Both the position numbers and the translations under genes were made by a program. DNA of 64,000 bases, taken from positions 447 to 64,446 of the forward strand of contig JAPLME010000004.1 of NCBI GenBank assembly GCA_026387175.1. Reading direction: 5' to 3'. Below are positions 82 to 29,148 of this stretch, piece by piece; positions within the stretch are counted from its first letter, which is position 1; each line of letters begins with the position of its first letter. The notes below the pieces were generated by a model. It did no database searches. It worked only from the letters and a program-made list of their open reading frames with translations, and was not told the origin of the DNA. The stretch is from Candidatus Omnitrophota bacterium. Its GTDB lineage: Bacteria > Omnitrophota > Gorgyraeia > 2-01-FULL-45-10.

Positions 82-101
82 GTTTGTACGATGAGATAAC
101 C

Positions 102-177: not shown

Positions 178-379
178 GCTTTTGCAATGGTCTTCAGCGG
201 CAAAAGCGTCCCGACGATCTAACTGGGGACAGCTTTTGCGCAGATAATAAACGACTTGATCATTCATTTTGTAACGATTTTGTTCCTTTATAAAAGGAAC
301 AGCTCGTTCTTTGACAACACAGGTTTAAGTGACAAAGGTAAATCGAGCATCAGCATGCCATTTTATGACGAATTAAAAT

Positions 380-3333
<2,954 letters not shown>

Positions 3334-3417
3334 TTTTATTTTTGAAAATGGCATTGATGCGATGTTCGATCGCACCCATGTTCACTTAAATCAGTGTTGT
3401 CGGAGTTTTACAGAAAT

Positions 3418-3535
3418 TCCCGGTGCTACCAGCGGAGGGGTCACACCCGTTCCCATTCCGAATACGGAAGTTAAGCCCTCCAGCGTCGATGGTACTTGCT
3501 GGGCAACTGGCTGGGAGAGTAGACCAGTGCCGGGT
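3418..3535 (+). rRNA. rrf: 5S ribosomal RNA
   Basis: Conserved 5S core ccgttcccattccgaatacggaagttaag...gtagaccagtgccggg. The ends can pair to form helix I. It lies immediately downstream of the 23S gene. Confidence 0.9.
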
Positions 3536-6203: not shown

Positions 6204-6587
6204 CTATTTAAGTATATTCTCTATATCAGGCGGCAGTGAATCGGTTTTTCTTATGAAGGCCACGCCGATATTATATTTACCGTCCTCATCCTCCTCGATC
6301 CTTACCACCTTGCCTATCAGCTTATTGTCGACCGTCATCGCATTTTCTTCTATTTCATGACAGATGCCCGTAGTGCGATAATCCAGATCGAGCTCAAGTA
6401 TGCTGGAGATGTCCGGAAGATGATCGCTCTTGAAGAGCAATCCGGAGACGCTTAGGTTTTTTGAGATGCCGCTGACCAGTTTTAACGCGGATTTGCTGTG
6501 CCTGGGAGAAAGTAATATTTTAAAATTTACGGGCTTATTATAACTATATCGCACGAACTCTCTTTTGTTTTCAGGGTTTGTATTCAT
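6204..6587 (-). CDS. PilZ-domain c-di-GMP-binding protein
   Basis: Translation from the internal Met (MNTNPENKREFVRYSYNKPVNFKIL...) gives an RxxxR motif and a later (D/N)xSxxG-like motif (NLSVSGLLF). SD ggagaggcgaga lies upstream of that ATG. The longer ORF-track start runs into the neighbouring gene. Confidence 0.7.
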   Translation of the reverse strand: MNTNPENKREFVRYSYNKPVNFKILLSPRHSKSALKLVSGISKNLSVSGLLFKSDHLPDISSILELDLDYRTTGICHEIEENAMTVDNKLIGKVVRIEEDEDGKYNIGVAFIRKTDSLPPDIENILK

Positions 6588-6714
6588 TCTCGCCTCTCCT
6601 TTCTCGAGAATTTTATACCATGAATAAATCAAAATGGCAATGCAAATGTGCGTTGCGCGGTTTTGAAAATTACACTTGCTATAATCGGCCGCAGGTAATA
6701 ATATATTCCCAAGG

Positions 6715-6969
6715 ATGGACAAGTTAAATTTAATAGCCACTATAGCCGGGATCTGCACGACCGCGTCTTTTTTACCGCAGGTCGTTAAAGTATATCATAC
6801 CAGGCATACCAAGGACCTTTCGCTGCCGATGTACGTTATTTTTTCCTGCGGCGTTTTCTTATGGGTATACTACGGAGTCATGATACAGAGCTGGCCGATA
6901 ATGATCGCTAACGGGACAACGTTTATCTTGTCGGTCTATATTCTGGCGATGAAGATCAGGTACAAATAA
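6715..6969 (+). CDS. SemiSWEET / PQ-loop sugar-transporter family membrane protein
   Basis: 84 aa, three predicted TM helices, PQ motif (FLPQ) in TM1. This is typical of bacterial SemiSWEETs. Confidence 0.75.
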   Translation: MDKLNLIATIAGICTTASFLPQVVKVYHTRHTKDLSLPMYVIFSCGVFLWVYYGVMIQSWPIMIANGTTFILSVYILAMKIRYK

Positions 6970-14087: not shown

Positions 14088-14615
14088 ATGAAATCTCTTC
14101 CCGCCAGAAATTATTTTAAAACAGCGATAGCCCTTCTTGTTGTTATCCCAATCGCAGCATATCTGTATATAGCGGTTAAACAGAGCTTCAACAGGCGAAA
14201 TCCTATCGAGCTTTACGAGAGGAAATTGAAAGCCGCTCCCGAAAGCGTGAAGGCCAATAATGACATGGCCGTGGCTTATGAGAAGAAAGGCATGCACGAT
14301 AAAGCGATAAGCGTATATAACCGGATGTTGACTAAAGATTCGAACAATCCCGACCTGTATGTGAACCTCGCCGCCATTCAGATAAAAAAACGAAATCCCG
14401 AATCGGCTATAGCCTTGTGCGAAAAAGCCATAGAGCTGGAACCTGGCAATGCCACCGCTCATAACAATCTCGCCGTAGCTTATTACCTTCAAGGCGATTA
14501 CGAACTCGCTATAGAGCAATGCGATCTCGCCATCAAGTATGGCTACAAGGTAAAGTCCGAACTCCTCAATCTCCTTAAACCATACCGGGAGCAAGAAGAA
14601 ACGAATGAACATTGA
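14088..14615 (+). CDS. TPR-repeat protein with an N-terminal membrane anchor
   Basis: Several 34-aa TPR units (AVAY..KG..DKAI..Y...L repeated). Confidence 0.7.
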   Translation: MKSLPARNYFKTAIALLVVIPIAAYLYIAVKQSFNRRNPIELYERKLKAAPESVKANNDMAVAYEKKGMHDKAISVYNRMLTKDSNNPDLYVNLAAIQIKKRNPESAIALCEKAIELEPGNATAHNNLAVAYYLQGDYELAIEQCDLAIKYGYKVKSELLNLLKPYREQEETNEH

Positions 14616-16311
14616 TAAATTGAACGAGCTGCTCCTTACCGTGCAGAAGCCCGGCAGGTATGTCGGCGGAGAATGGAACGTTGCCAGGAAGGAGTGGACC
14701 GACGATAAGGTAAAGGTGCTGCTGGCGTTCCCCGACGCCTATGAAGTGGGGATGAGCTACCTCGGCATCAAGATACTTTACGGTATCCTGAATAACCGTT
14801 CCGACTGCCTGTGCGAACGTGTCTTCTCGCCATGGATCGATTTTGAGGAGGTCCTCAGAAAAAATCATATAAGCCTCTTCAGCCTGGAATCGCGCAAACC
14901 GATAAAAGAGTTCGATATAATAGGGATAAGCCTGGCCTATGAGTTGTGTTACACGAACGTATTGAATCTACTGGACCTGGGGGGCATCCCTCTGAGGAGC
15001 GCGGAGAGAACCGACTCGGACCCGCTGGTAATCGCCGGCGGACCATCCTGTTATAATCCTGAGCCGATGGCGGAGTTCATCGACGCTTTTTTAATAGGCG
15101 ACGGAGAAGACGCTATAAGCGAGATAGTGGATATATATAAAAAACTGCGCTTATCCGGAAACCGGTCCCGAAAAGATGTCTTGAGGGAGATGGCCAACAT
15201 AAAAGGTGTTTATGTTCCCTTCCTCTACAGAGTTGATTACAACGAAGACGGCACGATTGAAAGTTTTGAACCTTGCGAGAAGGGCATTCCGGAAAAAATT
15301 GAAAAAAGGATAGTCAGGGACCTGGACAAGGCCTTCTATCCCGTAGATCAGATAGTGCCGAATATCGGTATAATACACGACCGCGCCGCTATAGAGATCA
15401 TGAGGGGGTGTAAGCATGCCTGCAAGTTTTGCCAGGCCACGATTGCGTACAGACCGGTGCGGGAGCGTTCGCGAAATACTATTTTAGAACTTGCTAAAAA
15501 GACACACAGCTCGACCGGGTACGATGAAATATCCCTCTTATCGTTATCGAGCGTGGACCATTCCGAACTTCACGATACTATCAGGGATCTCAATAAAGAG
15601 TTTTGCCGTAATGCCGTGTCGCTTTCTATTCCGTCGCTTCGCATAGAGGATTCACTTAAGGATTTACCGGCGCTGATATCGGAAATAAAAAAAACCGGGC
15701 TCACATTCGCGCCGGAGGCAGGAAGCGACAGCCTTAGAAAATCACTTAACAAGAATATAAAGATAGAGAGGCTGTTCGAGGCCGCGTCAGAGTCGTTTAG
15801 AAAAGGCTGGCGCAAAGTCAAGCTGTACTTCATGATAGGGCTTCCGGGCGAGACCGAAGAAGATCTGGCCGGTATAACCGATCTGATGCGCAAGATCTCA
15901 AATCTTAAGAAAGAGATCGACGGCCATCCGGCCCAGATAACGGCGAGCATTAATGCGTTCGTGCCGAAACCTCATACGTTCTTTGAGCGTTCGGCAATGG
16001 CGGATGTTGAGTCGCTGGAGAAGAAGAGAGAGATTCTGCGGAGCGGTTTTCGGTCTAAGCTGATCGACCTGGATTTCCATTCATTCAACAGAAGTTATCT
16101 TGAAGCGATACTGACCAGGGGAGACAGAAGGCTGGCGAATGTCATATATGAGTCCTGGCGCTCAGGCGCGAGATTTGACGGGTGGCAGGAACTTTTTAGA
16201 TTCGAGACCTGGTTATCATCGCTTAAAGAACTTGGAATAGACGGATCGTTTTATGCCTTGAGGGCCAGAAAAGAAAATGAGCTGCTGCCATGGGATTTTA
16301 TCGAAATTTGA
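14605..16311 (+). CDS. B12-binding-domain radical SAM protein of the TIGR03960 type
   Basis: N-terminus LLLTVQKPGRYVGGEWN and KVLLAFPDAYEVGMSYLGIKILYGILN match this uncharacterised radical SAM family. Radical SAM core with a CxxxCxxC-type cluster site CKHACKFC. Confidence 0.8.
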   Translation: MNIDKLNELLLTVQKPGRYVGGEWNVARKEWTDDKVKVLLAFPDAYEVGMSYLGIKILYGILNNRSDCLCERVFSPWIDFEEVLRKNHISLFSLESRKPIKEFDIIGISLAYELCYTNVLNLLDLGGIPLRSAERTDSDPLVIAGGPSCYNPEPMAEFIDAFLIGDGEDAISEIVDIYKKLRLSGNRSRKDVLREMANIKGVYVPFLYRVDYNEDGTIESFEPCEKGIPEKIEKRIVRDLDKAFYPVDQIVPNIGIIHDRAAIEIMRGCKHACKFCQATIAYRPVRERSRNTILELAKKTHSSTGYDEISLLSLSSVDHSELHDTIRDLNKEFCRNAVSLSIPSLRIEDSLKDLPALISEIKKTGLTFAPEAGSDSLRKSLNKNIKIERLFEAASESFRKGWRKVKLYFMIGLPGETEEDLAGITDLMRKISNLKKEIDGHPAQITASINAFVPKPHTFFERSAMADVESLEKKREILRSGFRSKLIDLDFHSFNRSYLEAILTRGDRRLANVIYESWRSGARFDGWQELFRFETWLSSLKELGIDGSFYALRARKENELLPWDFIEI

Positions 16312-16317
16312 CAAAAG

Positions 16318-16346
16318 GATATCCTTATAGTATACTTTGGTCAATA
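16318..16346 (+). promoter_or_regulatory. Consensus sigma70 promoter (-35 ttgaca, 17-nt spacer, -10 tatact) for the GGDEF-domain gene
   Basis: Perfect -35 and near-consensus -10. The same gtatact -10 recurs at other strong promoters in this window. Confidence 0.6.
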
Positions 16347-16391
16347 TAATATATAACGATATTATTGCCAATATACGGGAGGGAGATAACG

Positions 16392-17777
16392 ATGGCCACC
16401 CTTAAGGGGTTGTTTATAAGCAGCAAAGGCTTAAGGCACAAACTTATGGTTGCGTTCAGCCTGATGACCATCATACCTCTTCTGGCCTGTGTATACCTGC
16501 TTTCCCCATATCTGAATCCCGGATTTCAGAACCTTGTAAATCTCGCTGTAATAATCTTAGCGTCGCTGGTCATTTCGATCCTGGGCCTTATCATTGCCGG
16601 AAGCATCATAAACGCTGTCGTCGAACTTTCTGCTGAAACAAAAAAGATATCCGCCGGCGACTACGACAGGCGCATAGACATACCGGGTGACGACGAACTC
16701 GGTAATCTCGGCCAGTCGATTAATATGATGACCAGGAGGATAAAATCCAACCTGGATGAACTGAAGAACTACGGGCAGAGCATGAAAGCGATAAACGCGG
16801 AGATACAGAAGAAAGTGACCGCGCTTTCGAGCTTGTTGCAGATAGATGAAGTGATTTCGGCCGGTTCGCTGCAGATAGATTCGCTTTTGGAGCTTGGGGT
16901 GGGCAAAGCATCCGGTATGTTCGATATGGGTTTCGGCGCTCTGTATATGTCCAGGGAAGAGGACGGGGATTTTATCGCGAAAGTGTGCTATAACGCCGAT
17001 AAGGAGAAGCTTGCGGAGATCGTAATAAGAAGAGGCGGTCATGGCGTCCTGGAGAAAGCTATCGAAAATAAGAAGATGTTCCAGGTCACTGATGGTATGA
17101 AGCTTCCTGATGATCTGGATGATTTTAAGAGAGCGCATAATCTGAAGAATTTTATTGTGATCCCGTTGTATTCCGACAGGATAGCGTTCGGGCTTCTTTT
17201 GCTTGGTAATCGTCTGAGTGATTTCAGCTACACCAGCGATGATATTGAACTAGCTACGGTATTCGCCAAACATATCACGATCGCCATCGAAAGCGACCTG
17301 TTGGAAAAGAAGAACAAAGAGCTTGCCATAATGGACGACCTGACAGGGCTGTATAACAAGCGTTATCTGCTTATACGGCTCGAAGAAGAGATAAAGAGGT
17401 CCATATTTTATCAGAGACCCTGCGCGTTCATAGTCTTCAGGGTGGATAATTTCAGGGCATTCCGCGAAACAAACGGCGAGCTGGCTTCGGAAGAGGCTCT
17501 TAAACGTATAGCCAAGGTCATAAGGGACAATAATATTCCGGTTGGCAGGGCCGCGCGTATAGGGGGAAGTGAGTTTGCTATGCTCCTTCCTGAGAAGAAT
17601 AAAAAAGAGGCCACCCGCATCGCCGAAGATGTACGCAGGAAGATTGAAAACGTCAATGTGCTGAAAGCGGGTAAGGTCAGCCTTGAGGTGAAGATGGGCT
17701 TGAGCGAAAACCCGATAGACGGCGCGACGAGCGAAGAGCTATTTAAAAAAGCTGTGGCTTCATTGGAAAAAGAATGA
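16392..17777 (+). CDS. Membrane HAMP-GAF-GGDEF protein with a degenerate (GGSEF) diguanylate-cyclase motif
   Basis: TM helices, HAMP (DELGNLGQSINMMTRRIK), GAF-like middle region and a GGDEF fold where the signature reads RIGGSEFAMLL. There is no RxxD I-site. The start at 16392 has SD gggaggga; the ORF-track start 16365 is the upstream alternative. Confidence 0.8.
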   Translation: MATLKGLFISSKGLRHKLMVAFSLMTIIPLLACVYLLSPYLNPGFQNLVNLAVIILASLVISILGLIIAGSIINAVVELSAETKKISAGDYDRRIDIPGDDELGNLGQSINMMTRRIKSNLDELKNYGQSMKAINAEIQKKVTALSSLLQIDEVISAGSLQIDSLLELGVGKASGMFDMGFGALYMSREEDGDFIAKVCYNADKEKLAEIVIRRGGHGVLEKAIENKKMFQVTDGMKLPDDLDDFKRAHNLKNFIVIPLYSDRIAFGLLLLGNRLSDFSYTSDDIELATVFAKHITIAIESDLLEKKNKELAIMDDLTGLYNKRYLLIRLEEEIKRSIFYQRPCAFIVFRVDNFRAFRETNGELASEEALKRIAKVIRDNNIPVGRAARIGGSEFAMLLPEKNKKEATRIAEDVRRKIENVNVLKAGKVSLEVKMGLSENPIDGATSEELFKKAVASLEKE

Positions 17778-17789
17778 AAGGAATATTAA

Positions 17790-18854
17790 ATGCCTCATAA
17801 TATGAAAGACCTCTTAAGCCTGATGGTTCAGAAGAGCGCCTCAGATCTTCATATAACCTCCGGGTCTCCGGTCCATTTAAGGGTGGACGAGAACCTTATT
17901 CCCGTGGACCGGAATATTTTGTCCGATAATGATACGAAGGCCCTTGTCTTCAGTATGCTGACCGAAACGCAGATAGAAAAATTTGAGCGGGAGCTGGAGC
18001 TCGATGTGGCGTTCAGCATGGAAGATTTTGGCCGATTCAGGGTTAACGTTTTTAAGCAGAGGGGCTCAGTCGCCTCATCAATAAGGCTCATACCCGGTAA
18101 TTTATGGTCTTTCGAAAAGTGTGGCTTGCCGGCGGATGTGGCGATCGACCTTTGCAACAGGCCCAAAGGCCTTGTGCTGATCACGGGCTCGACGGGAAGC
18201 GGTAAGTCCACAAGCCTTGCCTCGATGATAGACTGGATAAACACTAACCGCTCATGCCATATTGTTACGATCGAGGACCCTGTGGAATTTGTTCATAAGA
18301 ATAAGAAGTCGATAGTCAATCAGCGCGAAGTATACAGCGATACGCACTCTTTCAACGCTTCGCTGAAACATATTTTAAGGCAGGACCCGGACGTTATCCT
18401 GATAGGAGAGATGAGGGACCTGGAGACGATCGAGTCGGCTTTAATAATCGCCGAAACGGGCCACCTGGTTTTCGCGACTCTGCATACGTCAGACTGCGTC
18501 CAGACCATTAACAGGATTGTAGATGTCTTCCCCTCTCATCAGCAGGAACAGACACGTACTCAGCTTTCGTTTGTTCTGGTCGGGGTCCTGTCCCAGCAGC
18601 TTATTCCTAAAGCGGAAGGGCCGGGACGTGTATTGGCTACCGAAATCCTTATGGTGACGCCTCCGGTGCGCAGCATGATAAGGGAATCGAAGGCGCACCA
18701 GCTGTATTCTGTGATACAGACGTCGAAGAAAGAGGGTATGAAGACGATGAACCAGTCTCTCTATGAGCTTTATAGCAAGAAGCTGATCACTTATGAAGAA
18801 GCTTTCGACCGATCCACGGATATCGAGGATCTAGGAAGGCTGTTTAAAAAATAG
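17790..18854 (+). CDS. pilT: Twitching-motility retraction ATPase PilT
   Basis: Walker A GSTGSGKST, Asp box, His box, ~350 aa with no N-terminal extension. Classic PilT. Confidence 0.92.
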   Translation: MPHNMKDLLSLMVQKSASDLHITSGSPVHLRVDENLIPVDRNILSDNDTKALVFSMLTETQIEKFERELELDVAFSMEDFGRFRVNVFKQRGSVASSIRLIPGNLWSFEKCGLPADVAIDLCNRPKGLVLITGSTGSGKSTSLASMIDWINTNRSCHIVTIEDPVEFVHKNKKSIVNQREVYSDTHSFNASLKHILRQDPDVILIGEMRDLETIESALIIAETGHLVFATLHTSDCVQTINRIVDVFPSHQQEQTRTQLSFVLVGVLSQQLIPKAEGPGRVLATEILMVTPPVRSMIRESKAHQLYSVIQTSKKEGMKTMNQSLYELYSKKLITYEEAFDRSTDIEDLGRLFKK

Positions 18855-18870
18855 AAATATAAGAAAGCCA

Positions 18871-19320
18871 ATGTCCAACGCTAAGAGAGTCGTATCTAAA
18901 CAATTGGGCGAGCTTTTGCTGGAGCGGGGCGTGATCAGCGAAGAACAGCTGAATAAAGCCCTGAAGGCCCAGGAGATTAACGGAGGCCTGATAGGTTATA
19001 TCCTTGTTTCGCTGGGTTACGCAAAAGAAGAGGAGATAGCTCAGGCGCTTACCGTGCAGTATGGTTTTCCGTATTTACCGCTTGAGTATTATGAGATAAA
19101 TACTGAGGCGATGAAGCTGATACCGCGGAACGTCGCCGAACAATACAATCTTATTGCGATAGATAAGATGGGCAACCTGTTGACTATAGCTATGTCGAAC
19201 CCCCTGAATGCTCAGGCGGTAGAGGATATTGAAATGATATCGAATTGCACGGTGCAGGTATTCGTGAGCACGATGTCCGACGTAACTAACGCGATAACCA
19301 AATACTACCAGAAAAAATAA
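18871..19320 (+). CDS. Stand-alone T2SS-E N-terminal (MshEN-like) domain protein, a putative c-di-GMP receptor
   Basis: KQLGELLLERGVISEEQLNKALKAQ fits the 24-residue MshEN motif RLGxxLxxxGxIxxxQLxxALxxQ. The rest is the GspII_E_N fold. There is no ATPase domain. Confidence 0.75.
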   Translation: MSNAKRVVSKQLGELLLERGVISEEQLNKALKAQEINGGLIGYILVSLGYAKEEEIAQALTVQYGFPYLPLEYYEINTEAMKLIPRNVAEQYNLIAIDKMGNLLTIAMSNPLNAQAVEDIEMISNCTVQVFVSTMSDVTNAITKYYQKK

Positions 19321-19328
19321 TCCTTTAA

Positions 19329-21062
19329 ATGACGCCCGGACTAAAAGAGAAACTTACAAAGATCCTGATAGATAAGAACCTCATAAAAGAGGATGACCTT
19401 CAGAAGGCCCTCGCGCTGCAGAAGGAAAAGGGCGGATCTTTAAGCGACGTGCTGATAGCCCTCAAGCTGATATCGAAGAATGACCTGATGATGGTAATCA
19501 GCGAGCATCTGGGTATCCCGCCCATAAATCTGAGCCGTTTTAAGATAGATCCCGCAGTTCTTAAACTTGTTTCCAGAAAAACCGCAAAGCATTATAAGAT
19601 AATGCCGATCGCTAAGATGGGTAATGTGCTGACGCTTGCTATAGCGGACCCTCTTAATATATTTGCCATCGATGATATAAAAGCCCTTACAGGGTTTAAG
19701 ATAGCCCCTATAGTTACTACCGAAAACGATATAAATTACGCTATAGGCCACTATTATGAGGAAGATACCTATGCCGCTATAGACAAGATAGTCACCGGTA
19801 TAAAAGGCGCTGATGGGGACGTGAAATTCATGGATGGCGCCGGCTCAGACGTCGGTGTGGAAGACATGACGGAGATCGCGCAGGAAGTTCCTGTAGTGAA
19901 GATAACGAATATGCTTGTCGCCGAGGGTCTAAAGATGCGCGCCAGCGATATACTTATCGAGCCGATGGAAAGAGAGCTGCGTGTCAGGTACAGGGTCGAC
20001 GGCATTTTGCAGGAGGGGCGAAGGCCCCCGAAGGTATTGCATAGCTCTATCGTGTCCAGGCTAAAGATTATATCGGATCTTGATATCGCGGAGCACCGCT
20101 TGCCCCAAGACGGCAGGTTTAAGATTAAGGTGTCCGGAAGGGAGGTCGACTTCAGGATATCGATCCTGCCATCGCGTATGGGAGAGAAGGTCGCGATCAG
20201 GATACTGGATAAGGCTCAGGCTACACTTGATATAAATAAACTTGGGATCGACCCGATATCCCTCGACAAGATAAAGAAATCAGCCGAGAGGCCGCATGGC
20301 ATGATACTCGTCTGTGGTCCGACGGGATGCGGAAAAACCACAACCCTCTATTCGATACTGCAGCTTATAAATTATCCGACGGACAACATAGTGACTGTCG
20401 AGGACCCGGTAGAGTATCTCATAGAAGGCATAAGCCAGGTGACCGCGCGGCCTGAAATAGGCCTCACCTTCGCCGCCGCGCTTCGTTCGATATTGAGACA
20501 GGACCCCGACTCAATAATGATAGGCGAAATACGTGATTTCGAAACCGTAGACATAGCTATAAAAGCGGCCCTTACGGGGCACCTCGTCTTAAGCACGCTG
20601 CATACGACGACGGCAACGGGCTCAATCATAAGGCTTGTCAATATGGGCCTTGAACCGTTCCTGATAGCGTCATCCCTGATAATGGTGGCCGCGCAGCGGC
20701 TTGTCCGAAAGATATGCCCCGGCTGCAAAGAGTCTTACGATCTCGATAAGGATATTGCCAGAAAAATCAACCTGGCGCCGGCATCCGGTAAAATTACTCT
20801 GTATCGGGGCAAGGGATGCCCTGACTGTCTGGGGACGGGATACAAGGGCCGGACCGCGTTGATAGAGGTCCTTATGCTTACTCCGAAGATAAAAGAGCTG
20901 GTCCTGGCAGGCGAGCAGGAGCATATTATAAGGGAAGCGGCAAGGCGCGAGGGCATGAAGACGCTTCGCGAAAATGGAATACAGAACGTGCTCGACGGTA
21001 TAACTACCCTCGACGAGGTAGTGCGCGTTACTGTCGGCGATCAGGACATGGATACGGTATAA
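19329..21062 (+). CDS. pilB: Type IV pilus assembly ATPase PilB (copy 1) with an N-terminal MshEN-like domain
   Basis: N-terminal LTKILIDKNLIKEDDLQKALALQ motif, Walker A GPTGCGKTTT, tetracysteine CPGC...CPDC zinc motif, GspE-family boxes. Confidence 0.9.
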   Translation: MTPGLKEKLTKILIDKNLIKEDDLQKALALQKEKGGSLSDVLIALKLISKNDLMMVISEHLGIPPINLSRFKIDPAVLKLVSRKTAKHYKIMPIAKMGNVLTLAIADPLNIFAIDDIKALTGFKIAPIVTTENDINYAIGHYYEEDTYAAIDKIVTGIKGADGDVKFMDGAGSDVGVEDMTEIAQEVPVVKITNMLVAEGLKMRASDILIEPMERELRVRYRVDGILQEGRRPPKVLHSSIVSRLKIISDLDIAEHRLPQDGRFKIKVSGREVDFRISILPSRMGEKVAIRILDKAQATLDINKLGIDPISLDKIKKSAERPHGMILVCGPTGCGKTTTLYSILQLINYPTDNIVTVEDPVEYLIEGISQVTARPEIGLTFAAALRSILRQDPDSIMIGEIRDFETVDIAIKAALTGHLVLSTLHTTTATGSIIRLVNMGLEPFLIASSLIMVAAQRLVRKICPGCKESYDLDKDIARKINLAPASGKITLYRGKGCPDCLGTGYKGRTALIEVLMLTPKIKELVLAGEQEHIIREAARREGMKTLRENGIQNVLDGITTLDEVVRVTVGDQDMDTV

Positions 21063-21063
21063 A

Positions 21064-22800
21064 ATGAAAACAGCGGACCCGCTTAAAGAAAAACTGATAG
21101 ATATTTTGATAAACGGCAAACTCATAACCCAGGAGCAGCTGGCTACCGCGCTCGATGTGCAGAGGAATATAGGCGGATCTCTCGGGAAGATCCTCGTCTG
21201 GCAGGGTTATGTCTCTCAGAAAGATATCGTGATAGCGATGAGCCAGCAACTAAACATTCCGCCGATAAATCTGTCTAAATATCAGATAGACAAGACGTTG
21301 ATAGATATTATCCCTGAACGGATAGTAAAGCAGTACTTGATAATGCCGATATCCAAGATCGGCAATGTGCTCACCGTCGCTATGGTGGATCCGCTTAATA
21401 TATTTGCCATCGATGACATAAAGACGCTGACCAATTATCGGATCCAGCCGATACTGGCCACTGAGAATGATATAAAAGAGGCTATAGGCACCTACTATAG
21501 CAGCGCGGCCATTGAGGACATCTCTGATATGCTCGATCAGGCTGAGGCCTCGGATGTCTCGGAGGTGGAAAAAGCAGAAGGGGAAGAGGAGATAAATGTA
21601 AGCGAGGTGGCTGAAGAATCGAAGAAGGCGCCGATAGTTAAAATAGTCAATCTGATATTGAATGAAGCGATGAAGAAGCGTTCGAGCGATATCCATATCG
21701 AACCGCGCGAAAAAAACTTGATGGTGCGCTATAGAATTGACGGTAATCTGGAAGATGCTCTTACTCTCCCTAAGAAAAATCAGAATGCGGTCATTGCGAG
21801 ATTAAAGATCATATCCGGCCTGGACATCACCGAGACCAGAATTCCGCAGGACGGGCGGTTTAAAGTAAACTTCGAAGGAAGAGAGATAGATTTCAGAGTG
21901 TCGATCCTGCCGGTGGCGTTTGGCGGCAAGATAGTTTTACGCGCGCTTGACAAGTCGAACCTGAGCATAGGCCTGGATGAACTCGGATTTTTACCGGGCC
22001 CTTTAAGCACTTTTAAGGCCGCTCTCGCGAGGCCTTACGGACTGATCCTTGTGACCGGTCCTACGGGCAGCGGAAAGTCCACGACATTATACTCAATCAT
22101 AAATCAGATTAACACGCCGGACAAGAACATAATTACCCTGGAAGATCCGGTAGAATACGAGGTCGACGGTATTACGCAGATTCAGGCCAGACCCGACATA
22201 GGATTGACCTTCGCCACGGGGCTAAAGTCCGTCTTAAGGCAGAGCCCTGATATTGTGATGGTCGGAGAGATAAGGGATTTTGAGACTGCGGATATTTCCA
22301 TCAAGGCATCGCTGACCGGCCAGCTTATATTAAGTACTCTTCATACCAATGACGCAGCGGGCGCGATAACGAGGCTTATAGACATGGGAGTGGAACCATT
22401 TCTTGTGGCATCCAGTCTCGTCCTCTCTTCGGCGCAAAGGCTCATGAGAAAAATCTGTCCGTTCTGTACGGAGGAGGTAGATATACCGAAAAACATTCTG
22501 GAAAAAGCGGGGATAAGCCTTGATGAGATATCTAAAAAAGGCGTTAAACATTTTCATCAAGGTAAGGGTTGCCAGAGATGCAATAATACCGGATATCACG
22601 GCAGGTTCGGTATCCTTGAGGCGCTTTTGATCGATGATAATGTGCGGGATATGATAATGAAGAAGACCTCGAGCGGCGATATAAAAGATTATGCCATAAA
22701 AGAACAGCATATGCTGACATTGAGAGATAACGCGGTAGAGAATTTTATTAACGGGACCACTGCGCTTGAGGAGGTTTTAAGGGTGACCTCGGAGGACTAG
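21064..22800 (+). CDS. Second PilB/GspE-family assembly ATPase (tandem paralog) with an MshEN-like N-domain
   Basis: KEKLIDILINGKLITQEQLATALDVQ N-motif, Walker A GPTGSGKSTT, CPFC...CQRC tetracysteine motif. About 45 percent identical to copy 1 by eye. It has an acidic linker (EASDVSEVEKAEGEEE) that copy 1 lacks. Confidence 0.88.
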   Translation: MKTADPLKEKLIDILINGKLITQEQLATALDVQRNIGGSLGKILVWQGYVSQKDIVIAMSQQLNIPPINLSKYQIDKTLIDIIPERIVKQYLIMPISKIGNVLTVAMVDPLNIFAIDDIKTLTNYRIQPILATENDIKEAIGTYYSSAAIEDISDMLDQAEASDVSEVEKAEGEEEINVSEVAEESKKAPIVKIVNLILNEAMKKRSSDIHIEPREKNLMVRYRIDGNLEDALTLPKKNQNAVIARLKIISGLDITETRIPQDGRFKVNFEGREIDFRVSILPVAFGGKIVLRALDKSNLSIGLDELGFLPGPLSTFKAALARPYGLILVTGPTGSGKSTTLYSIINQINTPDKNIITLEDPVEYEVDGITQIQARPDIGLTFATGLKSVLRQSPDIVMVGEIRDFETADISIKASLTGQLILSTLHTNDAAGAITRLIDMGVEPFLVASSLVLSSAQRLMRKICPFCTEEVDIPKNILEKAGISLDEISKKGVKHFHQGKGCQRCNNTGYHGRFGILEALLIDDNVRDMIMKKTSSGDIKDYAIKEQHMLTLRDNAVENFINGTTALEEVLRVTSED

Positions 22801-22823: not shown

Positions 22824-24041
22824 ATGCCGAATTTTAAATATGTTGCCAAGGACCGCGCCGGCAAGGCTTTGAGCGCAAGTCTGGATGCCAAGGACCGCGC
22901 GGCGGCCGTGGATGTCCTGAGAAAAAAGGATCTCATTATCATATCGGTGATTGAAGAGACGCCGAAAACCGGCATATCGCTTGCCATGTTCGGAGGGGCG
23001 AAGAAGATCAAGCTGGATGATATCGCCATGTTCGCCAGGCAGCTGGCCACGATGGTCGACGCGGGAATTACGCTGGTAGCCGCTCTCGATATACTGGGAG
23101 AACAGATGGACAATAAGGCATTCGGCGCGATAATATTGACCGTTCGTAATGATGTTGAGACGGGTTCGAGCCTTTCGGCGGCGCTGGCCAAACACAAAAA
23201 GGTATTTTCGCCTTTATTCGTTAATATGGTAAGGGCGGGTGAGTCCAGCGGTATGCTTGACGACATACTGGACCGGCTGTCTCAATATCTCGAAAAGACC
23301 AGCAGCCTTCAGAAGAAAGTACAGTCCGCTATGATCTATCCGGCCATTGTAAGCAGTATGGCGATAGGGATAACCCTCATATTACTCTTGAAAGTAGTGC
23401 CGATATTCAAAGATATATTTTCCGGCTTCGGCGCCAAACTTCCTACGCCCACACTCATCCTGATAACTATCAGCAATACCCTGCAAAAATATTTTTTAAT
23501 GGTTGTGTTATGCGTTGCCGGCATGGTTTTTCTGCTGCGCAAATATCTGAACACCGAAAAAGGCAGGGTAAAATTTGACGGATTCGTGCTGAATGTGCCA
23601 ATATTCGGGACCCTTCTCACAAAAGTCGCGATAAGTAAATTTTCCAGGACGCTCTCGACTCTCGTAAAATCAGGGGTTCCGATATTATCCGCGCTGGAGA
23701 TAGTAGGCAAAACAGCCGGCAATAAAGTGGTCGAAAATGCTGTAGATGAAGTGAGGAAGAATGTCAGGGAAGGCGAGGGTATAGCGGCTCCTCTGGCTAA
23801 GTCCAAAATATTTCCGACTATGATGACTAGAATGGTTTCAGTGGGCGAACAATCCGGAGAGCTGGAGAAGATGCTTTCAAAGATAGCCGATTTCTATGAT
23901 GATCAGGTAAGTATAGCCGTAAGCGGGTTAACCAGCATGATAGAGCCGCTTATAATAGCATTCCTGGGCATAGTCATAGGATCCGTTGTTATAGCCATGT
24001 TCCTTCCGATCTTTAAACTTACCACAGTTGTAAGCATGTAA
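22824..24041 (+). CDS. pilC: Type IV pilus platform protein PilC (GspF family)
   Basis: Two GspF repeats and three TM segments. Conserved position after pilB. Confidence 0.9.
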   Translation: MPNFKYVAKDRAGKALSASLDAKDRAAAVDVLRKKDLIIISVIEETPKTGISLAMFGGAKKIKLDDIAMFARQLATMVDAGITLVAALDILGEQMDNKAFGAIILTVRNDVETGSSLSAALAKHKKVFSPLFVNMVRAGESSGMLDDILDRLSQYLEKTSSLQKKVQSAMIYPAIVSSMAIGITLILLLKVVPIFKDIFSGFGAKLPTPTLILITISNTLQKYFLMVVLCVAGMVFLLRKYLNTEKGRVKFDGFVLNVPIFGTLLTKVAISKFSRTLSTLVKSGVPILSALEIVGKTAGNKVVENAVDEVRKNVREGEGIAAPLAKSKIFPTMMTRMVSVGEQSGELEKMLSKIADFYDDQVSIAVSGLTSMIEPLIIAFLGIVIGSVVIAMFLPIFKLTTVVSM

Positions 24042-24106: not shown

Positions 24107-24135
24107 TTGACAACGGGTAATTCATAACGTATACT
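24107..24135 (+). promoter_or_regulatory. Consensus sigma70 promoter (-35 ttgaca, 17 nt, -10 tatact) for the major pilin gene
   Basis: tcttgacaacgg...gtatact. The identical 12-mer tcttgacaacgg recurs at 24631 ahead of the mini-pilin/pilM operon. Confidence 0.6.
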
Positions 24136-24188
24136 TTTATTGAAGGTCTGGAATATGCCCAATTCTGGGAGAAAGCGGGGTGATTTAT

Positions 24189-24530
24189 ATGATGACAAAG
24201 ATGAACAAGAAAGGCTTTACGCTTGTTGAAATAATGATTGTTGTCGCAATTATAGGTCTATTAGCTGCGATAGCCATTCCAAACTTCATCAAAGCGAGGG
24301 AGACTGCGCAGAGAAACGCGTGTATCGCTAACCTGAAACAGATTCAGGGAGCGGCTCAGGTATGGGCCATAGATACCGGCGCGGCGTCAGACGCTACAGC
24401 TACATCGGCGGCTCTGGTGCCTAATTATCTGAAGGGGTGGCCGAAGTGCGGTACGAATTCTTATGCAGAAACGACCGTGAGCGGCACTCCAACGTGTCCG
24501 ACCACAGGCAGTGTTGGCCACACTATATAG
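24189..24530 (+). CDS. pilA: Type IVa major pilin (PilA-like prepilin)
   Basis: Class III signal: short basic leader ending KKG, then FTLVEIMIVVAIIGLLAAIAIPNF (Gly-1, Phe+1, Glu+5). C-terminal Cys pair WPKCG...TPTCP forms a disulfide loop. The ORF-track start 24180 is GTG; an ATG at 24189 or 24201 is likelier. Confidence 0.88.
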   Translation: MMTKMNKKGFTLVEIMIVVAIIGLLAAIAIPNFIKARETAQRNACIANLKQIQGAAQVWAIDTGAASDATATSAALVPNYLKGWPKCGTNSYAETTVSGTPTCPTTGSVGHTI

Positions 24531-24573
24531 CCGACAGGTTCATAAGTGTTGATTAATGTAAACCTAGGATCAG

Positions 24574-24607
24574 CCCCGCGTCCAAATTAATGGGCGCGGG
24601 GTTTTTC
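24574..24607 (+). terminator. Rho-independent terminator after pilA
   Basis: ccccgcg/cgcgggg stem with a 14-nt loop followed by ttttt. Confidence 0.75.
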
Positions 24608-24668: not shown

Positions 24669-24809
24669 ATGAATCTAAAAAATAACGCTGGTCTGACATT
24701 AGTTGAAAATCTAGTAGCGATACTTTTGGTAAGCACCCTATTGATAGGCATAATGGGTGCTTTTTTTGTTTCAAGTTACGCATCTCCCGCGATAGGCATG
24801 GAGAGGTGA
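24669..24809 (+). CDS. 46-aa mini-pilin (prepilin leader plus N-terminal alpha-1 helix only). It is absent from the ORF track because it is shorter than 60 aa.
   Basis: MNLKNNAG|LTLVENLVAILLVSTLLIGIMGAFFV has a class III cleavage/methylation motif (G, then L-T-L-V-E with Glu+5). The stop overlaps the pilM start. Preceded by the tcttgacaacgg promoter box. Confidence 0.5.
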   Translation: MNLKNNAGLTLVENLVAILLVSTLLIGIMGAFFVSSYASPAIGMER

Positions 24810-25852
24810 TGGCCGGATTTAACCTGCAATTAAAGCGTCCCGGAAAAATCAGGAGCATCACCGCGCTCGATATCGGCAGCCACTCGATAAAGATGATCGA
24901 GATTTCCGTTGGAGCGGAAAGGCCGTCTCTTGTCTCATTCGGTATAAAAAAGATACAGGGGCTTTCGAGCGGATCGGTAGCGGACGCCGTGAGAACGCTA
25001 TCTGAAGATCTTAAGATAGCGGGGAGAGACCTTAATATATCTCTTGCCGGATCGTCCATAGTGGCCCGTGTCATATCGATGCCGGATATGGGGGATGAGG
25101 ACCTGAAGAACGCCATCAGGTTTGAGACGGAAAAGTTTATCCCGTTCGATATCAATGAATGCACGCTCGATTTTCATATTCAGGGAAAGAGCGCGAGAGA
25201 AAAGAATAATTTAGACATACTTCTGGCGGCCGCCAAAAAAGACTATGTTCTCGCGAAGATAAAGATCGTGGAGGATGCGGGTTTCAGCGTCAATGTGGTC
25301 GATGTGGACAGTTTTGCCCTCACAAACGCGTTTCTTAAGAATTTCACCTCCATAGAGCCGGCTAAAACCATAGCTCTTATCAATGTGGGGGCTGTATATA
25401 CGAATCTTGTAATATTGAGGGGAGGAGTCATATCGTTCGTCAGGGATCTGGCGATAGGCGTGAATGACTTTTGCCAGACGATTTCTAAAAAGTGCGGCGT
25501 CAACCTGGAACTCTCCGACTGGTCTAAAGGCGTTTCGGCCGAGAAATCGGCCGAAGTCGCTCTTTCGGCGAAGTCCGCTCTCGCAGGTCTTGTAGATGAG
25601 ATAAAACTCTCTTTCGGATATCATGAAAACCAGAGCGGCAGAGGCATAGATGAGATACATATATCCGGCGGAGGCGCGGGTTTTATCGGACTGGAAGAGG
25701 CATTTAACGACACTTTCGGGTCCAAGCCGGCGCGGTGGAACCCTTTTCAGTTTCTAAATATAGATCCCTCCATAGTCAACGCTGATGAAATAGCCGGGAC
25801 AAACGGCTCTTTTGCCGTTTGCGCCGGACTTGCGCTGAGAGGAGGCCTATGA
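24806..25852 (+). CDS. pilM: Type IV pilus assembly protein PilM (actin-like ATPase fold)
   Basis: ALDIGSHSIKMIE N-terminus and FtsA/actin-like fold. Conserved pilMNOPQ order. Confidence 0.9.
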   Translation: MMAGFNLQLKRPGKIRSITALDIGSHSIKMIEISVGAERPSLVSFGIKKIQGLSSGSVADAVRTLSEDLKIAGRDLNISLAGSSIVARVISMPDMGDEDLKNAIRFETEKFIPFDINECTLDFHIQGKSAREKNNLDILLAAAKKDYVLAKIKIVEDAGFSVNVVDVDSFALTNAFLKNFTSIEPAKTIALINVGAVYTNLVILRGGVISFVRDLAIGVNDFCQTISKKCGVNLELSDWSKGVSAEKSAEVALSAKSALAGLVDEIKLSFGYHENQSGRGIDEIHISGGGAGFIGLEEAFNDTFGSKPARWNPFQFLNIDPSIVNADEIAGTNGSFAVCAGLALRGGL

Positions 25853-26472
25853 TAGAGATAAATCTGCTTCCGCAGGAACTCAGGAAGAAACCTCCGATTT
25901 TTTCCGGGCTGGATTTTAAAGGAATCGATATAAAGAGCATCCCGATACTCAAGATAGCCGCCGGCATAGGCGCTGGGCTAGTCCTGATGCAACTGGCGGT
26001 TTTTCTGTTCGGGATAATTTCAAGCATTGAGCTTGCTTCGACTACCAAAAAATACAACGCGATATTGCCGGAAAAGAGAGAGGCGGACATATTGAAGGCG
26101 AAAGTAGCCGATATCAATAAGAGATCCGGCGCTATCGACGAGCTGATGGTGAAGCGGTTTAGCTGGGCCAGGAAGATCAATCTCTTAAGCGATTGCATGA
26201 CCCCCGGGATATGGCTCTCGGAGCTTTACTATGATGAACGTCCGGTTCCAGGCCAGGCCAAGACGGCTATGCCCGGAGCGCTTGTGATGAGCGGATACGC
26301 TTCCGGAGTTGGCGAGCAGGGAGCCGCCCTTATAGGAAAATTTATAAAAAGTCTGCAGGATAATAAAGATTTCTATTCAGATGTCGCCAGCGTGGAACTG
26401 GTCTCCACGAAGAGCGACAAAGTGGACAAGCAGGACGTGATGAGTTTCAGGATAAACTGTTTATTTAAATAG
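25849..26472 (+). CDS. pilN: Type IV pilus assembly protein PilN
   Basis: MIEINLLPQELRKK canonical PilN N-terminus, single TM, coiled coil. ATGA overlap with pilM. The ORF-track start 25819 is probably too long. Confidence 0.85.
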   Translation: MIEINLLPQELRKKPPIFSGLDFKGIDIKSIPILKIAAGIGAGLVLMQLAVFLFGIISSIELASTTKKYNAILPEKREADILKAKVADINKRSGAIDELMVKRFSWARKINLLSDCMTPGIWLSELYYDERPVPGQAKTAMPGALVMSGYASGVGEQGAALIGKFIKSLQDNKDFYSDVASVELVSTKSDKVDKQDVMSFRINCLFK

Positions 26473-26478
26473 GTTAAG

Positions 26479-27078
26479 ATGCGGACGATATTGAACAACA
26501 TAATCGCTATTTTCACGAACCTTAAGAAGAGCCCGAAGCAGATGATAATTGTGATATCCGCGGGCTGCGCCTTTGCGCTCTTATTGTATTTTAATTTTTT
26601 GCTGAAACCTCAGGTTATCAACATATCCGGCATTAGAAGCAATCTCGGTAAAGTCAGCGCGGATCTGAGGGCCGCAAAATCTGATATCGCCAAAATCAAC
26701 AGCATGAGAAGCGCGGTCGAAGCATACAACAAGAAGCTGGACAAATATGAGAAGACGCTTCCCACGGAAGAGGGCATACCTGACCTGTTGGAAAGCCTTT
26801 CCGAGATGGCGAAGAGCTCTAATATGCGCATAGCCGGCATAGTGCCGGTCGATCAACAAAAAGGGGCCGGGTCCGGAAATCGTGTTTACAAAGAGATACC
26901 TATAATGATAACCGCCAAGGCCGGATATCATGGGGTGGGACGGTTTCTTTCCAGCCTGGAGAATTCCGACCGGTTTATGAAGGTGGTCGATATGCAGATA
27001 AAAGCCGATCCGGCTTCGCCGAAGAAGCACGATGTGGAACTGCTGGTGGTTACATATGTTTTGCTGGGGGGCCGATGA
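26479..27078 (+). CDS. pilO: Type IV pilus assembly protein PilO
   Basis: Single TM then coiled coil. Position between pilN and pilP. Confidence 0.8.
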   Translation: MRTILNNIIAIFTNLKKSPKQMIIVISAGCAFALLLYFNFLLKPQVINISGIRSNLGKVSADLRAAKSDIAKINSMRSAVEAYNKKLDKYEKTLPTEEGIPDLLESLSEMAKSSNMRIAGIVPVDQQKGAGSGNRVYKEIPIMITAKAGYHGVGRFLSSLENSDRFMKVVDMQIKADPASPKKHDVELLVVTYVLLGGR

Positions 27079-27464
27079 AATTCCATTTCGGGAAACAGGC
27101 GCACCTTATCTTTTTTTCGCTGGCAGCTATGGTTATTTTTATATTGCCCTGCGCCGGTGACGACTATAAATATGATTCTCACGGTAAGCGCGACCCTTTC
27201 GTGCCCCTGGTGAGCATAGACAGGCCCGCGGTGTCGAGATTAGAGGATGTGACATCGGTCGCGGATGTGAAACTGGAAGGCGTGGCCAGCACCCCTCGGG
27301 GAAAAATAGCCGCGATATTGAACGGTGAGATCGTGAAGGAAGGCGACAAGTTCGGGGATATAGAAATCAAAAAAATCACAAAAAAGACCGTCACGATAAT
27401 AATGGGCGGTAAAAATTATAATATCGATTTAGCCGAAGAGGGGGGAACAAAGAGTGGGTTATAA
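27075..27464 (+). CDS. pilP: Type IV pilus assembly lipoprotein PilP
   Basis: Lipobox LPCAG, small beta domain, overlaps pilO and pilQ. Confidence 0.75.
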   Translation: MKFHFGKQAHLIFFSLAAMVIFILPCAGDDYKYDSHGKRDPFVPLVSIDRPAVSRLEDVTSVADVKLEGVASTPRGKIAAILNGEIVKEGDKFGDIEIKKITKKTVTIIMGGKNYNIDLAEEGGTKSGL

Positions 27465-29148
27465 AAGAGCCGCAAGGCTATCAAGAAAGCTCCTGATCAT
27501 GGTATTGGTGATTATATTTATCGCACCGCCTTTAGCTCTTATCCAGGCGTTTGCCGAAGAAGGGAAAGCGGAGACGCTTCCTGAGAAGCCTGCGTCTGCG
27601 GTCAGCGTCCCGGCAGAGAAAGCTCAGGATGTTTCCGCGCAACCTGTTGCTAAATCCGGAGTGGCCCCGGCCCTGCCAGAGCCGCCGGCGCAGGAAGAAG
27701 CTAAGCCTGTGGAGGTCCTTCCGGTCGAGCCCGGCAACGTCACTGTCAATTTTAAGGGCGCTGAGATAAAAACGGTCCTGGCCTATATATCGGAAGTGGC
27801 AGGCGTCGATATAGTGTCGGCTCCCGATGTTAAAGGTATTATAGATCTTAGGCTGACCAATAAGCCATGGAAGGCGGCGCTCGATATCATCGTAAGAAAT
27901 TATGGATTCGCTTACGAGAGGGAAGGTGACATCATAAGGGTCGTGACGCTTGATAAGTTGAAACAGGAAGAGCTTACGACCCAGGCTTTTAGCCTTAACT
28001 ACTCAAAATCGAAGGAAGTCGTCGCGGCGCTAAAGAATATAGTAGGTGAGAGGGGCAATATAGTGTTTGACGATAGGACCAATACTGTTATAGTCACGGA
28101 TATCCCCACTAACATATACAGGATAGGCCAGATAATCGGAAGGCTCGATAAGAGGACGGAGCAGGTTCTTATAGAGGCGAGGATAATAGAGACGGTGCTG
28201 GGTAATGACGAGAAGCTGGGGATAGACTGGACCGCAAAGATGACAGTCAGCGGCGCTAGTCGTCCGACTACAATGCCGTTCAATTTCTTTAATAACGATG
28301 ACTGGAAATTTTTAGATAAAATGATCCCTTGGGACCAGACAAATGCACCAACGGTTATCGCATTACCGGGTACGCAAGGTACACAGACTGTAACGCCTGC
28401 GAATTTCCCTGTATCTAATGCTGGTATCAATGTGAAATCATTTCCTCTTGCGCTCGCTGACAGTTTCAGTTTTGGGACGCTAGATTTCAGCCAGTTTAAA
28501 GCGGTATTGGAGTTATTGAAATCGCGGGCCGACACAGATACCATATCAAATCCGCGCATAGCCACTCTTAATAATAATAAAGCTACTATAAATGTTGGCG
28601 AAATTATCTACATTCCTAAGTTTGAAAGAAACTCCACAACCGGAAAGATGGAGATCACCGGATATGACCAGACAAATTCCGGCATTGTGCTGGATGTCAC
28701 TCCTCATATTAACGATGTCGGCGAGATAGCGCTGGATCTGGTTCCCCAGATAAAAGAATACCTGGGGACTTCGCCCATAGCTCCGGGCAGTGATATATTC
28801 GCGCCATTATTCAGGACCAGAGAAGCAAAGACGCAGGTGATGGTGAAAAACAGCCAGACAATATTTATCGGCGGCCTGATAAGCGAGAAAGAAGTTGATA
28901 AGCGCACTAAGCTGCCGTTCATCGGGGACATGCTTGGCGATGTTCCGTATCTGGGGCTCCTGGTCTCCCATAAAGACATAGTTAAGCAGAGGGTGGAGTT
29001 GATATTTTTCATCACAGTTAATATAATGTCTCCCGGAACTGCGATAGAAGGTGCGCCGTTAGCCAGTAAAGCGTATGTGCCCGTATTTACCGATACCCAG
29101 CGTGGTAACACAGCCGCCGATAAGAAGAGATTGAAAAAAACATATTAA
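27454..29148 (+). CDS. pilQ: Type IV pilus secretin PilQ
   Basis: Signal peptide, N0/N1 domains (VNFKGAEIKTVLAYISEVAGVDIV), C-terminal secretin domain with GGLISEKEVDKRTKLPFIGDMLGDVPYLG. GTG start in the ORF track. Confidence 0.9.
   Translation: MGYKRAARLSRKLLIMVLVIIFIAPPLALIQAFAEEGKAETLPEKPASAVSVPAEKAQDVSAQPVAKSGVAPALPEPPAQEEAKPVEVLPVEPGNVTVNFKGAEIKTVLAYISEVAGVDIVSAPDVKGIIDLRLTNKPWKAALDIIVRNYGFAYEREGDIIRVVTLDKLKQEELTTQAFSLNYSKSKEVVAALKNIVGERGNIVFDDRTNTVIVTDIPTNIYRIGQIIGRLDKRTEQVLIEARIIETVLGNDEKLGIDWTAKMTVSGASRPTTMPFNFFNNDDWKFLDKMIPWDQTNAPTVIALPGTQGTQTVTPANFPVSNAGINVKSFPLALADSFSFGTLDFSQFKAVLELLKSRADTDTISNPRIATLNNNKATINVGEIIYIPKFERNSTTGKMEITGYDQTNSGIVLDVTPHINDVGEIALDLVPQIKEYLGTSPIAPGSDIFAPLFRTREAKTQVMVKNSQTIFIGGLISEKEVDKRTKLPFIGDMLGDVPYLGLLVSHKDIVKQRVELIFFITVNIMSPGTAIEGAPLASKAYVPVFTDTQRGNTAADKKRLKKTY

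Follow-up and report, generated by a model that had tools for sequence, protein, structure and literature searches.

In the MshEN domain of Vibrio cholerae MshE (VcMshEN), each of two 24-residue motifs binds half of cyclic di-GMP (c-di-GMP), and the backbone of the glycine at motif position 3 (Gly3) hydrogen-bonds guanine (PMC5013675). The substitution G11L in motif I made binding undetectable, G40I in motif II weakened it 72-fold, and the known non-binder XpsE has G11V and G40L (PMC5013675). The subject of this report is a domain of the same family that is encoded as a stand-alone protein of 149 amino acids (aa), next to two tandem genes for the extension ATPase PilB, in one tight type IVa pilus operon of a Candidatus Omnitrophota metagenome-assembled genome (MAG). 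The window, that is, the whole stretch of DNA analysed, comprises 64,000 nucleotides (nt) of contig JAPLME010000004.1, and the operon was delineated in it from open reading frames (ORFs) and Pfam/NCBIfam matches. With slightly better than even confidence, we read the small protein as a c-di-GMP sensor that was split off the extension motor and would act in trans on both ATPases, PilB1 and PilB2.

Several described systems bear on this locus. Arginine at motif position 1 stacks on guanine, and the extended consensus is (R/K/L)LG (PMC11731258). The GSPII-B domain of PilF from Thermus thermophilus, which has Lys in motif I and Leu (L196) in motif II at this position, binds with a dissociation constant (KD) of 6 nM; its K167L variant has a KD of 2 nM and L196R binds 4-fold more weakly (PMC11731258). 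The GSPII-A domain of PilF fails to bind although its motif I is close to the consensus, and restoration of the consensus gives no rescue (PMC12002112). The N-domain of Pseudomonas and Xanthomonas PilB is non-binding, and c-di-GMP input arrives in trans via FimX/PilZ, which binds that N-domain (PMC8389850, PMC11656802). How c-di-GMP at the MshEN/N1 domain alters PilB activity is poorly understood; full-length structures resolve the domain poorly, and the phenotypes of mutants conflict between species (PMC11656802).

The stand-alone protein is encoded at 18871..19320 on the plus strand. A previous sequence-only reading of this DNA had proposed that three consecutive genes begin with an MshEN-type c-di-GMP-binding motif, and the three peptides quoted for them are present in the ORFs at 18871-19320, 19329-21062 and 21064-22800. 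All three N-domains score above the cut-off (38 bits) of the NCBIfam model NF053729 ('cyclic di-GMP-binding domain, MshE-related'), with 61.6 bits for the stand-alone protein, 47.7 for PilB1 and 50.8 for PilB2 (E-values from 4e-17 to 1e-12), and their matches are therefore not confined to a generic GspII_E_N domain. Pfam MshEN (PF05157) is also matched by all three, the stand-alone protein scoring 63.3 bits against a cut-off of 23.1; because this model spans only the C-terminal subdomain (residues ~61-148 of the stand-alone protein) and not the binding motif, the match is uninformative on the binding site. The two 24-residue motifs of the stand-alone protein and the 5-residue spacer between them read QLGELLLERGVISEEQLNKALKAQ / EINGG / LIGYILVSLGYAKEEEIAQALTVQ, in short QLG...Q / EINGG / LIG...Q. 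As had been proposed, Pfam and NCBIfam find no ATPase domain in the 149 aa. The AlphaFold2 (AF2) model of the protein (predicted local distance difference test score, pLDDT, 92.8) has helices at residues 12-18, 24-37, 41-47 and 53-64 and, after them, an alpha/beta part, which is the four-helix bundle with alpha/beta subdomain expected of MshEN. Its best Foldseek match is MshE with c-di-GMP (5HTL; TM score 0.77-0.82, E 2e-12), and the next is c-di-GMP-bound PilF GSPII-B.

The gene is widely kept among relatives, where it is syntenic with pilB. A total of 2467 homologues was found at E <= 1e-5; the best 120 of these have lengths of 147-156 aa and share at least 75% identity with the stand-alone protein, and one 100% match, labelled hypothetical protein, belongs to a Candidatus Omnitrophica MAG. 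An exhaustive search of 50%-identity representatives gave dozens more clusters of single-MshEN proteins (145-215 aa, 38-68% identity), and Gly13 of motif I is invariant in the alignment of 28 such clusters. Setting aside two unassigned '[bacterium]' entries, homologues with a taxon name belong to Omnitrophota (Ca. Makaraimicrobium among them), save for one MAG labelled Deltaproteobacteria and two labelled Planctomycetia, and these three likewise have an Omnitrophota-type neighbourhood. On these comparisons the small gene is a real, selected and old one. The alternative of a pseudogene, in which the ORF would be a decayed 5′ piece of a third ATPase, draws on its alignment to the N-termini of full-length PilB proteins. 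It is refuted by the conserved length (147-156 aa in the best 120 of 2467 homologues), by an identity of only 30% to the N-domain of PilB1 and 36% to that of PilB2, by ends that coincide with the domain boundary, and by the 8 nt between its stop codon and pilB1, which leave no space for an ATPase remnant; none was found downstream, and we give this alternative practically no credence.

Motif residues were compared over 93 close loci, comprising 10 Omnitrophota genome loci, 80 metagenome loci and the loci L012, L013 and L015; all 80 metagenome loci are at least 63% identical to the query (the scan used the closer alignment, A2). The stand-alone protein (89 distinct sequences) has Gly3 in 89/89 for motif I and 89/89 for motif II, Gln24 in 87/89 and 89/89, respectively, and conserved hydrophobic residues (Leu/Ile/Val) at positions 2, 17 and 21. 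Among 81 distinct PilB1 sequences, Gly3 occurs in 0/81 in motif I (T/L/I/A/V/N/S/M instead) and in 3/81 in motif II, where 74 have Ser, and Gln24 in 77/81 (motif I) and 2/81 (motif II). For PilB2 (40 distinct sequences), the corresponding counts of Gly3 are 0/40 (I/V/T/L instead) and 37/40, and those of Gln24 are 38/40 and 35/40. The window copies follow this pattern, PilB1 reading KLT in motif I and SLS in motif II and PilB2 reading KLI in motif I. The same split recurs in eight divergent loci, where the small protein has Gly in motif I and in motif II and the adjacent PilBs have none in motif I. Neither PilB1 nor PilB2 thus has glycine at position 3 of both motifs (G11 and G40 of VcMshE), and on their sequences both N-domains belong to the MshEN family but have degenerate sites. 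For the contrast with canonical PilBs, PDB alignments of Geobacter and Myxococcus PilB and the literature were used.

The earlier count of three c-di-GMP-binding motifs is accordingly overstated, because the PilB N-domains have no glycine at motif position 3, even though all three domains pass NF053729; and the statement that two PilB ATPases each carry a c-di-GMP-binding N-domain does not hold against a systematic loss of the motif glycine across orthologues. At motif position 1 the stand-alone protein has no Arg: motif I has Gln in 80/89 and motif II Leu in 88/89, while more distant members of the family have Lys or Arg at this position of motif I. Leu at position 1 of motif II is compatible with tight binding, since PilF GSPII-B (L196) and its K167L variant bind with nanomolar KD. 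PilF's GSPII-C domain ('RLE') was considered as a counter-example to the glycine requirement and was dropped, as it has three motifs, two of them with Gly.

The position of the small gene is conserved, too. It lies directly upstream of pilB in every flanked locus checked (93 close and 7 divergent), down to ~40% identity, and members at ~35-45% identity retain this position with a spacing between a 17-nt overlap and 52 nt. All close loci with enough flank have the order (rSAM)-(GGDEF)-PilT-MshEN-PilB1-PilB2-PilC, in which rSAM denotes a radical-SAM gene, and the gene order of L099, L101 and L102 is like that of the window. Other orders are REC-MshEN-PilB-PilB-PilC in L012/L013, MshEN-PilB-PilB-HD-GYP-PilC in L096 and L100, and GGDEF-MshEN-PilB-PilC-PilS/R-like-pilin in L014, where the small gene overlaps its neighbours by 4 nt on both sides. 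At L098:6001-8298, a 765-aa protein (P0134) joins the two parts in one chain: residues 4-150 match the window small protein with 44% identity, residues 194-761 match PilB1 with 46% identity, and the linker of 40 aa between them is of low complexity and rich in Gly/Asn/Lys. The genes for PilB2 and PilC follow. By its sequence, P0134 counts as a Rosetta-stone fusion, with its parts in the same order as the split genes.

Further family members were noted in these surveys. P0125, P0144, P0272-P0287 and L101:6001-6633 occupy the same operon position as the stand-alone MshEN gene. In P0153, P0156, P0202, P0213, P0222, P0228 and P0264, relatives of the stand-alone protein (41-52% identity) are fused to PilZ as MshEN-PilZ or X-MshEN-PilZ, so that a single chain has c-di-GMP receptor domains of two kinds; this architecture is absent from Supplementary Table 4 of Wang 2016 and recalls the PilB(N)-PilZ complex 7LKM. 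In P0164 (454 aa), a DnaA-type ATPase domain (Bac_DnaA) is joined to an MshEN domain that shares 49% identity with the window protein; this is either a real fusion or a gene-calling artefact.

In the window, the genes for the HAMP-GAF-GGDEF protein, PilT, the stand-alone MshEN protein, PilB1, PilB2 and PilC follow one another on the plus strand with gaps of 12, 16, 8, 1 and 23 nt, the 1-nt junction of pilB1 and pilB2 reading TAAAATG. PilB1 (19329..21062, 577 aa, with the degenerate MshEN N-domain) matches Pfam T2SSE with 445 bits in addition to MshEN, and PilB2 (21064..22800, 578 aa, degenerate in motif I) matches the same two families, T2SSE with 430 bits; the two are 48% identical over their full length. 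By inspection, both have Walker A (GPTGCGKTT in PilB1), Walker B with its Glu, the His box and the tetracysteine CxxC...CxxC. Against TIGR02538 (type IV-A PilB), PilB1 scores 617 and PilB2 626 bits versus an equivalog cut-off of 675.65, and the pair is flanked by pilT, pilC, pilA and pilMNOPQ. TfpB was tried as an identity for either copy and ruled out (NF053534, 423 and 426 bits versus a cut-off of 850). The pilB tandem is kept in all divergent clades sampled but one, that of L014, which has a single pilB. At L005:10452-12123 (MAG RIFCSPHIGHO2_02_FULL_46_20), pilB1 appears as two overlapping ORFs of 329 and 264 aa, through a frameshift or an assembly error.

The remaining pilus genes on the same strand were each found once in the window. 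They are pilC for the platform protein (22824..24041; Pfam T2SSF twice, NF052606/NF052607 ~425 bits), pilA for the major pilin with a prepilin N-methylation motif (24180..24530; Pfam N_methyl), and pilM, pilN, pilO, a pilP-like gene and the pilQ secretin gene (24806..29148; Pfam PilM_2, PilO and Secretin/Secretin_N/STN, with orthologues in related loci). The canonical GFTLVE pilin motif has its single occurrence in the window in pilA. Two filament types, which the sequence-only reading had suggested for the paralogues, are not favoured because the window has a single pilC, canonical pilin and pilMNOPQ set; two motors on one machine are more likely, and a mixed hexamer of PilB1 and PilB2 is possible.

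That the locus is linked to c-di-GMP, as first suggested, is supported. The membrane HAMP-GAF-GGDEF protein (16365..17777, plus strand; Pfam HAMP, GAF and GGDEF) does carry the signature GGSEF in a degenerate cyclase domain, but it is not immediately upstream of the small gene as had been stated: a complete gene for the retraction ATPase PilT (17790..18854, plus strand; TIGR01420 pilT_fam 467.5 bits versus a cut-off of 319.1, Pfam T2SSE), which had been overlooked, intervenes. The presumed inactivity of the GGSEF protein is borne out by alignment with PleD, where it shows D327R, N335R, GGSEF in place of GGEEF and no RxxD I-site; at the C-terminus it is ~12 aa shorter than its five orthologues and has lost the AKxxGKNRV segment (window 17740-17790). 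As an active diguanylate cyclase would have GG[D/E]EF, D327, N335 and the C-terminal Lys/Arg, the window protein is very probably not a cyclase. The five orthologues read GGDEF but have N/R at D327 and R at N335, so that the whole orthologous group is probably non-catalytic, and the loss of AKxxGKNRV together with GGSEF where the orthologues read GGDEF suggests that decay of the cyclase domain is still in progress in the window lineage. The HAMP-GAF-GGDEF gene occurs upstream of pilT in the closer clade.

Other lineages have turnover genes of their own in this operon. At L014:7090-8447, a near-canonical transmembrane GGDEF gene overlaps the MshEN gene by 4 nt, as the MshEN gene in turn overlaps pilB; the protein keeps DIDNFK...ND...GGDEF, has Asn at the equivalent of PleD D344, and scores 122 bits against solved cyclases versus 72 bits for the window copy. 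From its sequence this locus looks like a compact cyclase-receptor-motor module. Between pilB2 and pilC, L096:10821-11861 matches Pfam HD_5 and HD and reads HHERYDGKGYP, and hence is of the HD-GYP type, and L100:10003-11073 matches Response_reg (REC), HD_5 and HD, its assignment being by Pfam matches alone. A PilZ gene had been reported at 6.2-6.6 kb of the window; it is real (6204-6758, minus strand; PF07238 31.9 bits, cut-off 22.5), with canonical motifs (RxxxR as REFVR, NxSxxG as NLSVSG), but it is no part of the operon, lying 10 kb away on the opposite strand amid unrelated genes (REC, EF-G). This canonical PilZ protein indicates that the organism uses c-di-GMP. An Rfam scan of the whole window at gathering thresholds gave no c-di-GMP riboswitch and matched only 23S rRNA, 5S rRNA and two tRNAs.

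The mechanism that we favour can be put as follows. The stand-alone MshEN protein would bind one c-di-GMP in its four-helix bundle and, depending on the ligand, would dock onto the PilB1/PilB2 motor or onto a docking site of PilM/PilC, and this docking would gate pilus assembly, by activation or by inhibition. Without their motif glycines, the N-domains of PilB1 and PilB2 might serve only as structural or platform-contact domains, and the two ATPases may power a single machine, perhaps together in a mixed hexamer. The HAMP-GAF-GGDEF protein encoded upstream would be a non-catalytic sensor or scaffold in the window lineage. A wider version, in which the detached sensor throughout the phylum Omnitrophota docks reversibly as a subunit common to two 'blind' PilBs of one heteromeric motor, with a local GGDEF/HD-GYP source or sink, is more tentative, and we think it rather less likely to be right than wrong.

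A sensor in trans is supported by the family and fold of the small protein, the complementary motif states, Leu at position 1 of motif II, the constant adjacency to pilB, the fusion P0134, the recruitment of GGDEF and HD-GYP genes to the same operon in other lineages, the PilZ protein of the window and the precedent of FimX/PilZ and PilB. Several points weigh against it. We infer both the ligand and the partner of the small protein. Prediction of binding from motifs is fallible, as PilF GSPII-A shows (PMC12002112), and Gln at position 1 of motif I (80/89) is outside both the published set (R/K/L) and the relaxed set of Wang, [RKPN]. Motif II of PilB2 is intact and both PilB domains exceed the NF053729 cut-off, so PilB may bind weakly or in a non-canonical way. 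The counts of motif residues do not represent independent events; the glycine was probably lost once in an ancestor. The fusion P0134 was seen on one contig, and a related MshEN protein of 154 aa (P0206, L097:7001-7465) lies outside any pil locus, between genes for a Rex-like regulator and ndk/aconitase.

Two of these doubts, the non-binding of GSPII-A despite good motifs and Gln in place of Arg/Lys/Leu, also speak for the rival that we rank highest. In it the small protein would be a structural adaptor that works independently of the ligand, a non-binder like GSPII-A that connects PilB1/PilB2 with PilM or the platform, or that aids formation of a mixed hexamer. We regard it as unlikely, though worth keeping in view: Gly3, Leu2, Leu17, Leu21 and Gln24 in both motifs and the 5-residue spacer are near-invariant across ~40% sequence divergence, and GGDEF and HD-GYP genes were recruited into the same operons, neither of which an adaptor indifferent to the ligand accounts for well. 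Next in rank comes the role given to the protein by the sequence-only reading, a free MshEN domain that acts as a sink or competitor beside two c-di-GMP-binding ATPases, which makes three binders in all. The NF053729 scores of all three N-domains, the intact motif II of PilB2 in 37/40 orthologues and the co-expression from one operon that is predicted from gene spacing agree with this model. It is nevertheless improbable in our estimate, as motif I has no Gly in PilB1 (0/81) or PilB2 (0/40) and the equivalent G11L abolishes binding by VcMshEN, and as a pure buffer needs neither a conserved C-terminal subdomain nor strict adjacency to pilB nor a fusion with PilB1. Given this systematic loss of the motif glycine from the PilBs, tasks divided between a trans-acting sensor and blind motors are likelier than a sink or competitor.

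The rival ranked below these directs the small protein at retraction: it would not act on PilB and would switch between extension and retraction by competing with PilT at the platform or by recruiting it. Such a switch would suit the place of pilT directly upstream in the clade of the window and the lack of an N1 domain in PilT itself. We consider it very doubtful, since L012, L014, L096 and L100 have no neighbouring pilT while the small gene still adjoins pilB, and since the sole fusion seen joins the domain to PilB1 and not to PilT.

Among described systems, VcMshEN (5HTL) and PilF GSPII-B (8PDK) are the nearest to a sensor of this kind, being alike in fold (Foldseek TM 0.7-0.8), in the two 24-residue motifs with a 5-residue spacer and in the pilus-assembly setting, and GSPII-B shares Leu at position 1 of motif II. 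Unlike in MshE and PilF, the domain in the window is a separate polypeptide with Gln at position 1 of motif I, and the neighbouring ATPases have degenerate copies. FimX/PilZ with PilB (PDB 7LKM and related) has a separate c-di-GMP receptor that binds the PilB N-domain in trans, much as we propose for the window; FimX/PilZ, however, consists of an EAL/GGDEF protein and a PilZ adaptor unrelated to MshEN, whereas the putative receptor of the window is an operon-encoded paralogue of the PilB N-domain. In the multi-MshEN ATPases, (MshEN)2-T2SSE and (MshEN)3-T2SSE, for instance Cthe_1107 and PilF, extra distal MshEN domains precede the ATPase-proximal one, and not all of them bind (Wang 2016, Supplementary Table 4). 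P0134 is a fused form of this kind, colinear with the stand-alone gene and pilB1 of the window, and by this analogy we propose that the stand-alone protein is functionally equivalent to the distal MshEN of such ATPases; the difference is that the distal domain is a separate gene in the window and ~100 related loci.

Two further systems resemble the locus in part. PA3740 of P. aeruginosa, of which counterparts are known from beta-/gammaproteobacteria, is among the c-di-GMP binders listed as tested by experiment and has a link to swarming motility (Wang 2016). Compared by its description only, it also has no ATPase domain, consisting of MshEN_N and a highly divergent T2SSE_N1; it differs in this divergent C-terminal subdomain, and no mention of a pilB-adjacent location was found for it. 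Acinetobacter baylyi uses two distinct extension ATPases, PilB and TfpB, in a single type IV pilus system (PMC11656802), as may be the case here, but the genes in the window are tandem, their products are 48% identical as given above, and neither is a TfpB. The architecture table of Wang et al. has MshEN fused to many domains and lists PA3740, with no row for a plain single-domain MshEN beside pilB. Neither full-text searches (stand-alone MshEN; Omnitrophota pili and c-di-GMP) nor a recent review of PilB cofactors yielded an account of the arrangement, in agreement with the sequence-only reading, which had called it undescribed for canonical pil loci. The domain, the ligand and the target are already known; new is the split, operon-encoded and phylum-wide arrangement with complementary degeneration.

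The flanks of the operon were annotated as well. A sigma-70-like promoter-like site (TTGACA-17-TATACT, 11/12 consensus), called by its consensus match alone, precedes the operon at 16308..16336 on the plus strand, and the same 11/12 element (TTGACA, 17 nt, TATACT) recurs as a consensus match only at 24107-24135, ahead of pilA. After pilA, the terminator scan found a terminator-like hairpin with a 13-bp GC-rich stem and a T-tract (24572-24603, plus strand), again a consensus-type match alone. Between pilA and pilM, a short unannotated reading frame (window 24670-24806) starts with MNLKNNAGLTLVENLVAILLV, which resembles the N-terminal methylation motif of minor pilins. Directly upstream of the operon, a radical-SAM gene occupies 14605-16311 on the plus strand; this gene (of the Radical_SAM_N2 type in related loci) is kept immediately upstream of the operon in divergent Omnitrophota, often after mreBCD-PBP2-rodA. 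Positions 5-3535, where the window begins, contain two tRNA genes, a complete 23S rRNA gene and a 5S rRNA gene.

For family annotation, these results mean that 'MshEN' calls at the level of hidden Markov models (HMMs) give too high a number of c-di-GMP receptors if the motif glycines are left unchecked. A separate sensor with degenerate motors would be a natural split system, each component of which could be purified, titrated and mutated independently, and, if the reading is true, it would reveal how occupancy of the MshEN/N1 domain is transmitted to PilB. Omnitrophota are uncultivated and mostly ultra-small, and their attachment or host-interaction biology may depend on pili. In this phylum, the stand-alone MshEN protein would be a nearly phylum-wide marker of pilus regulation.

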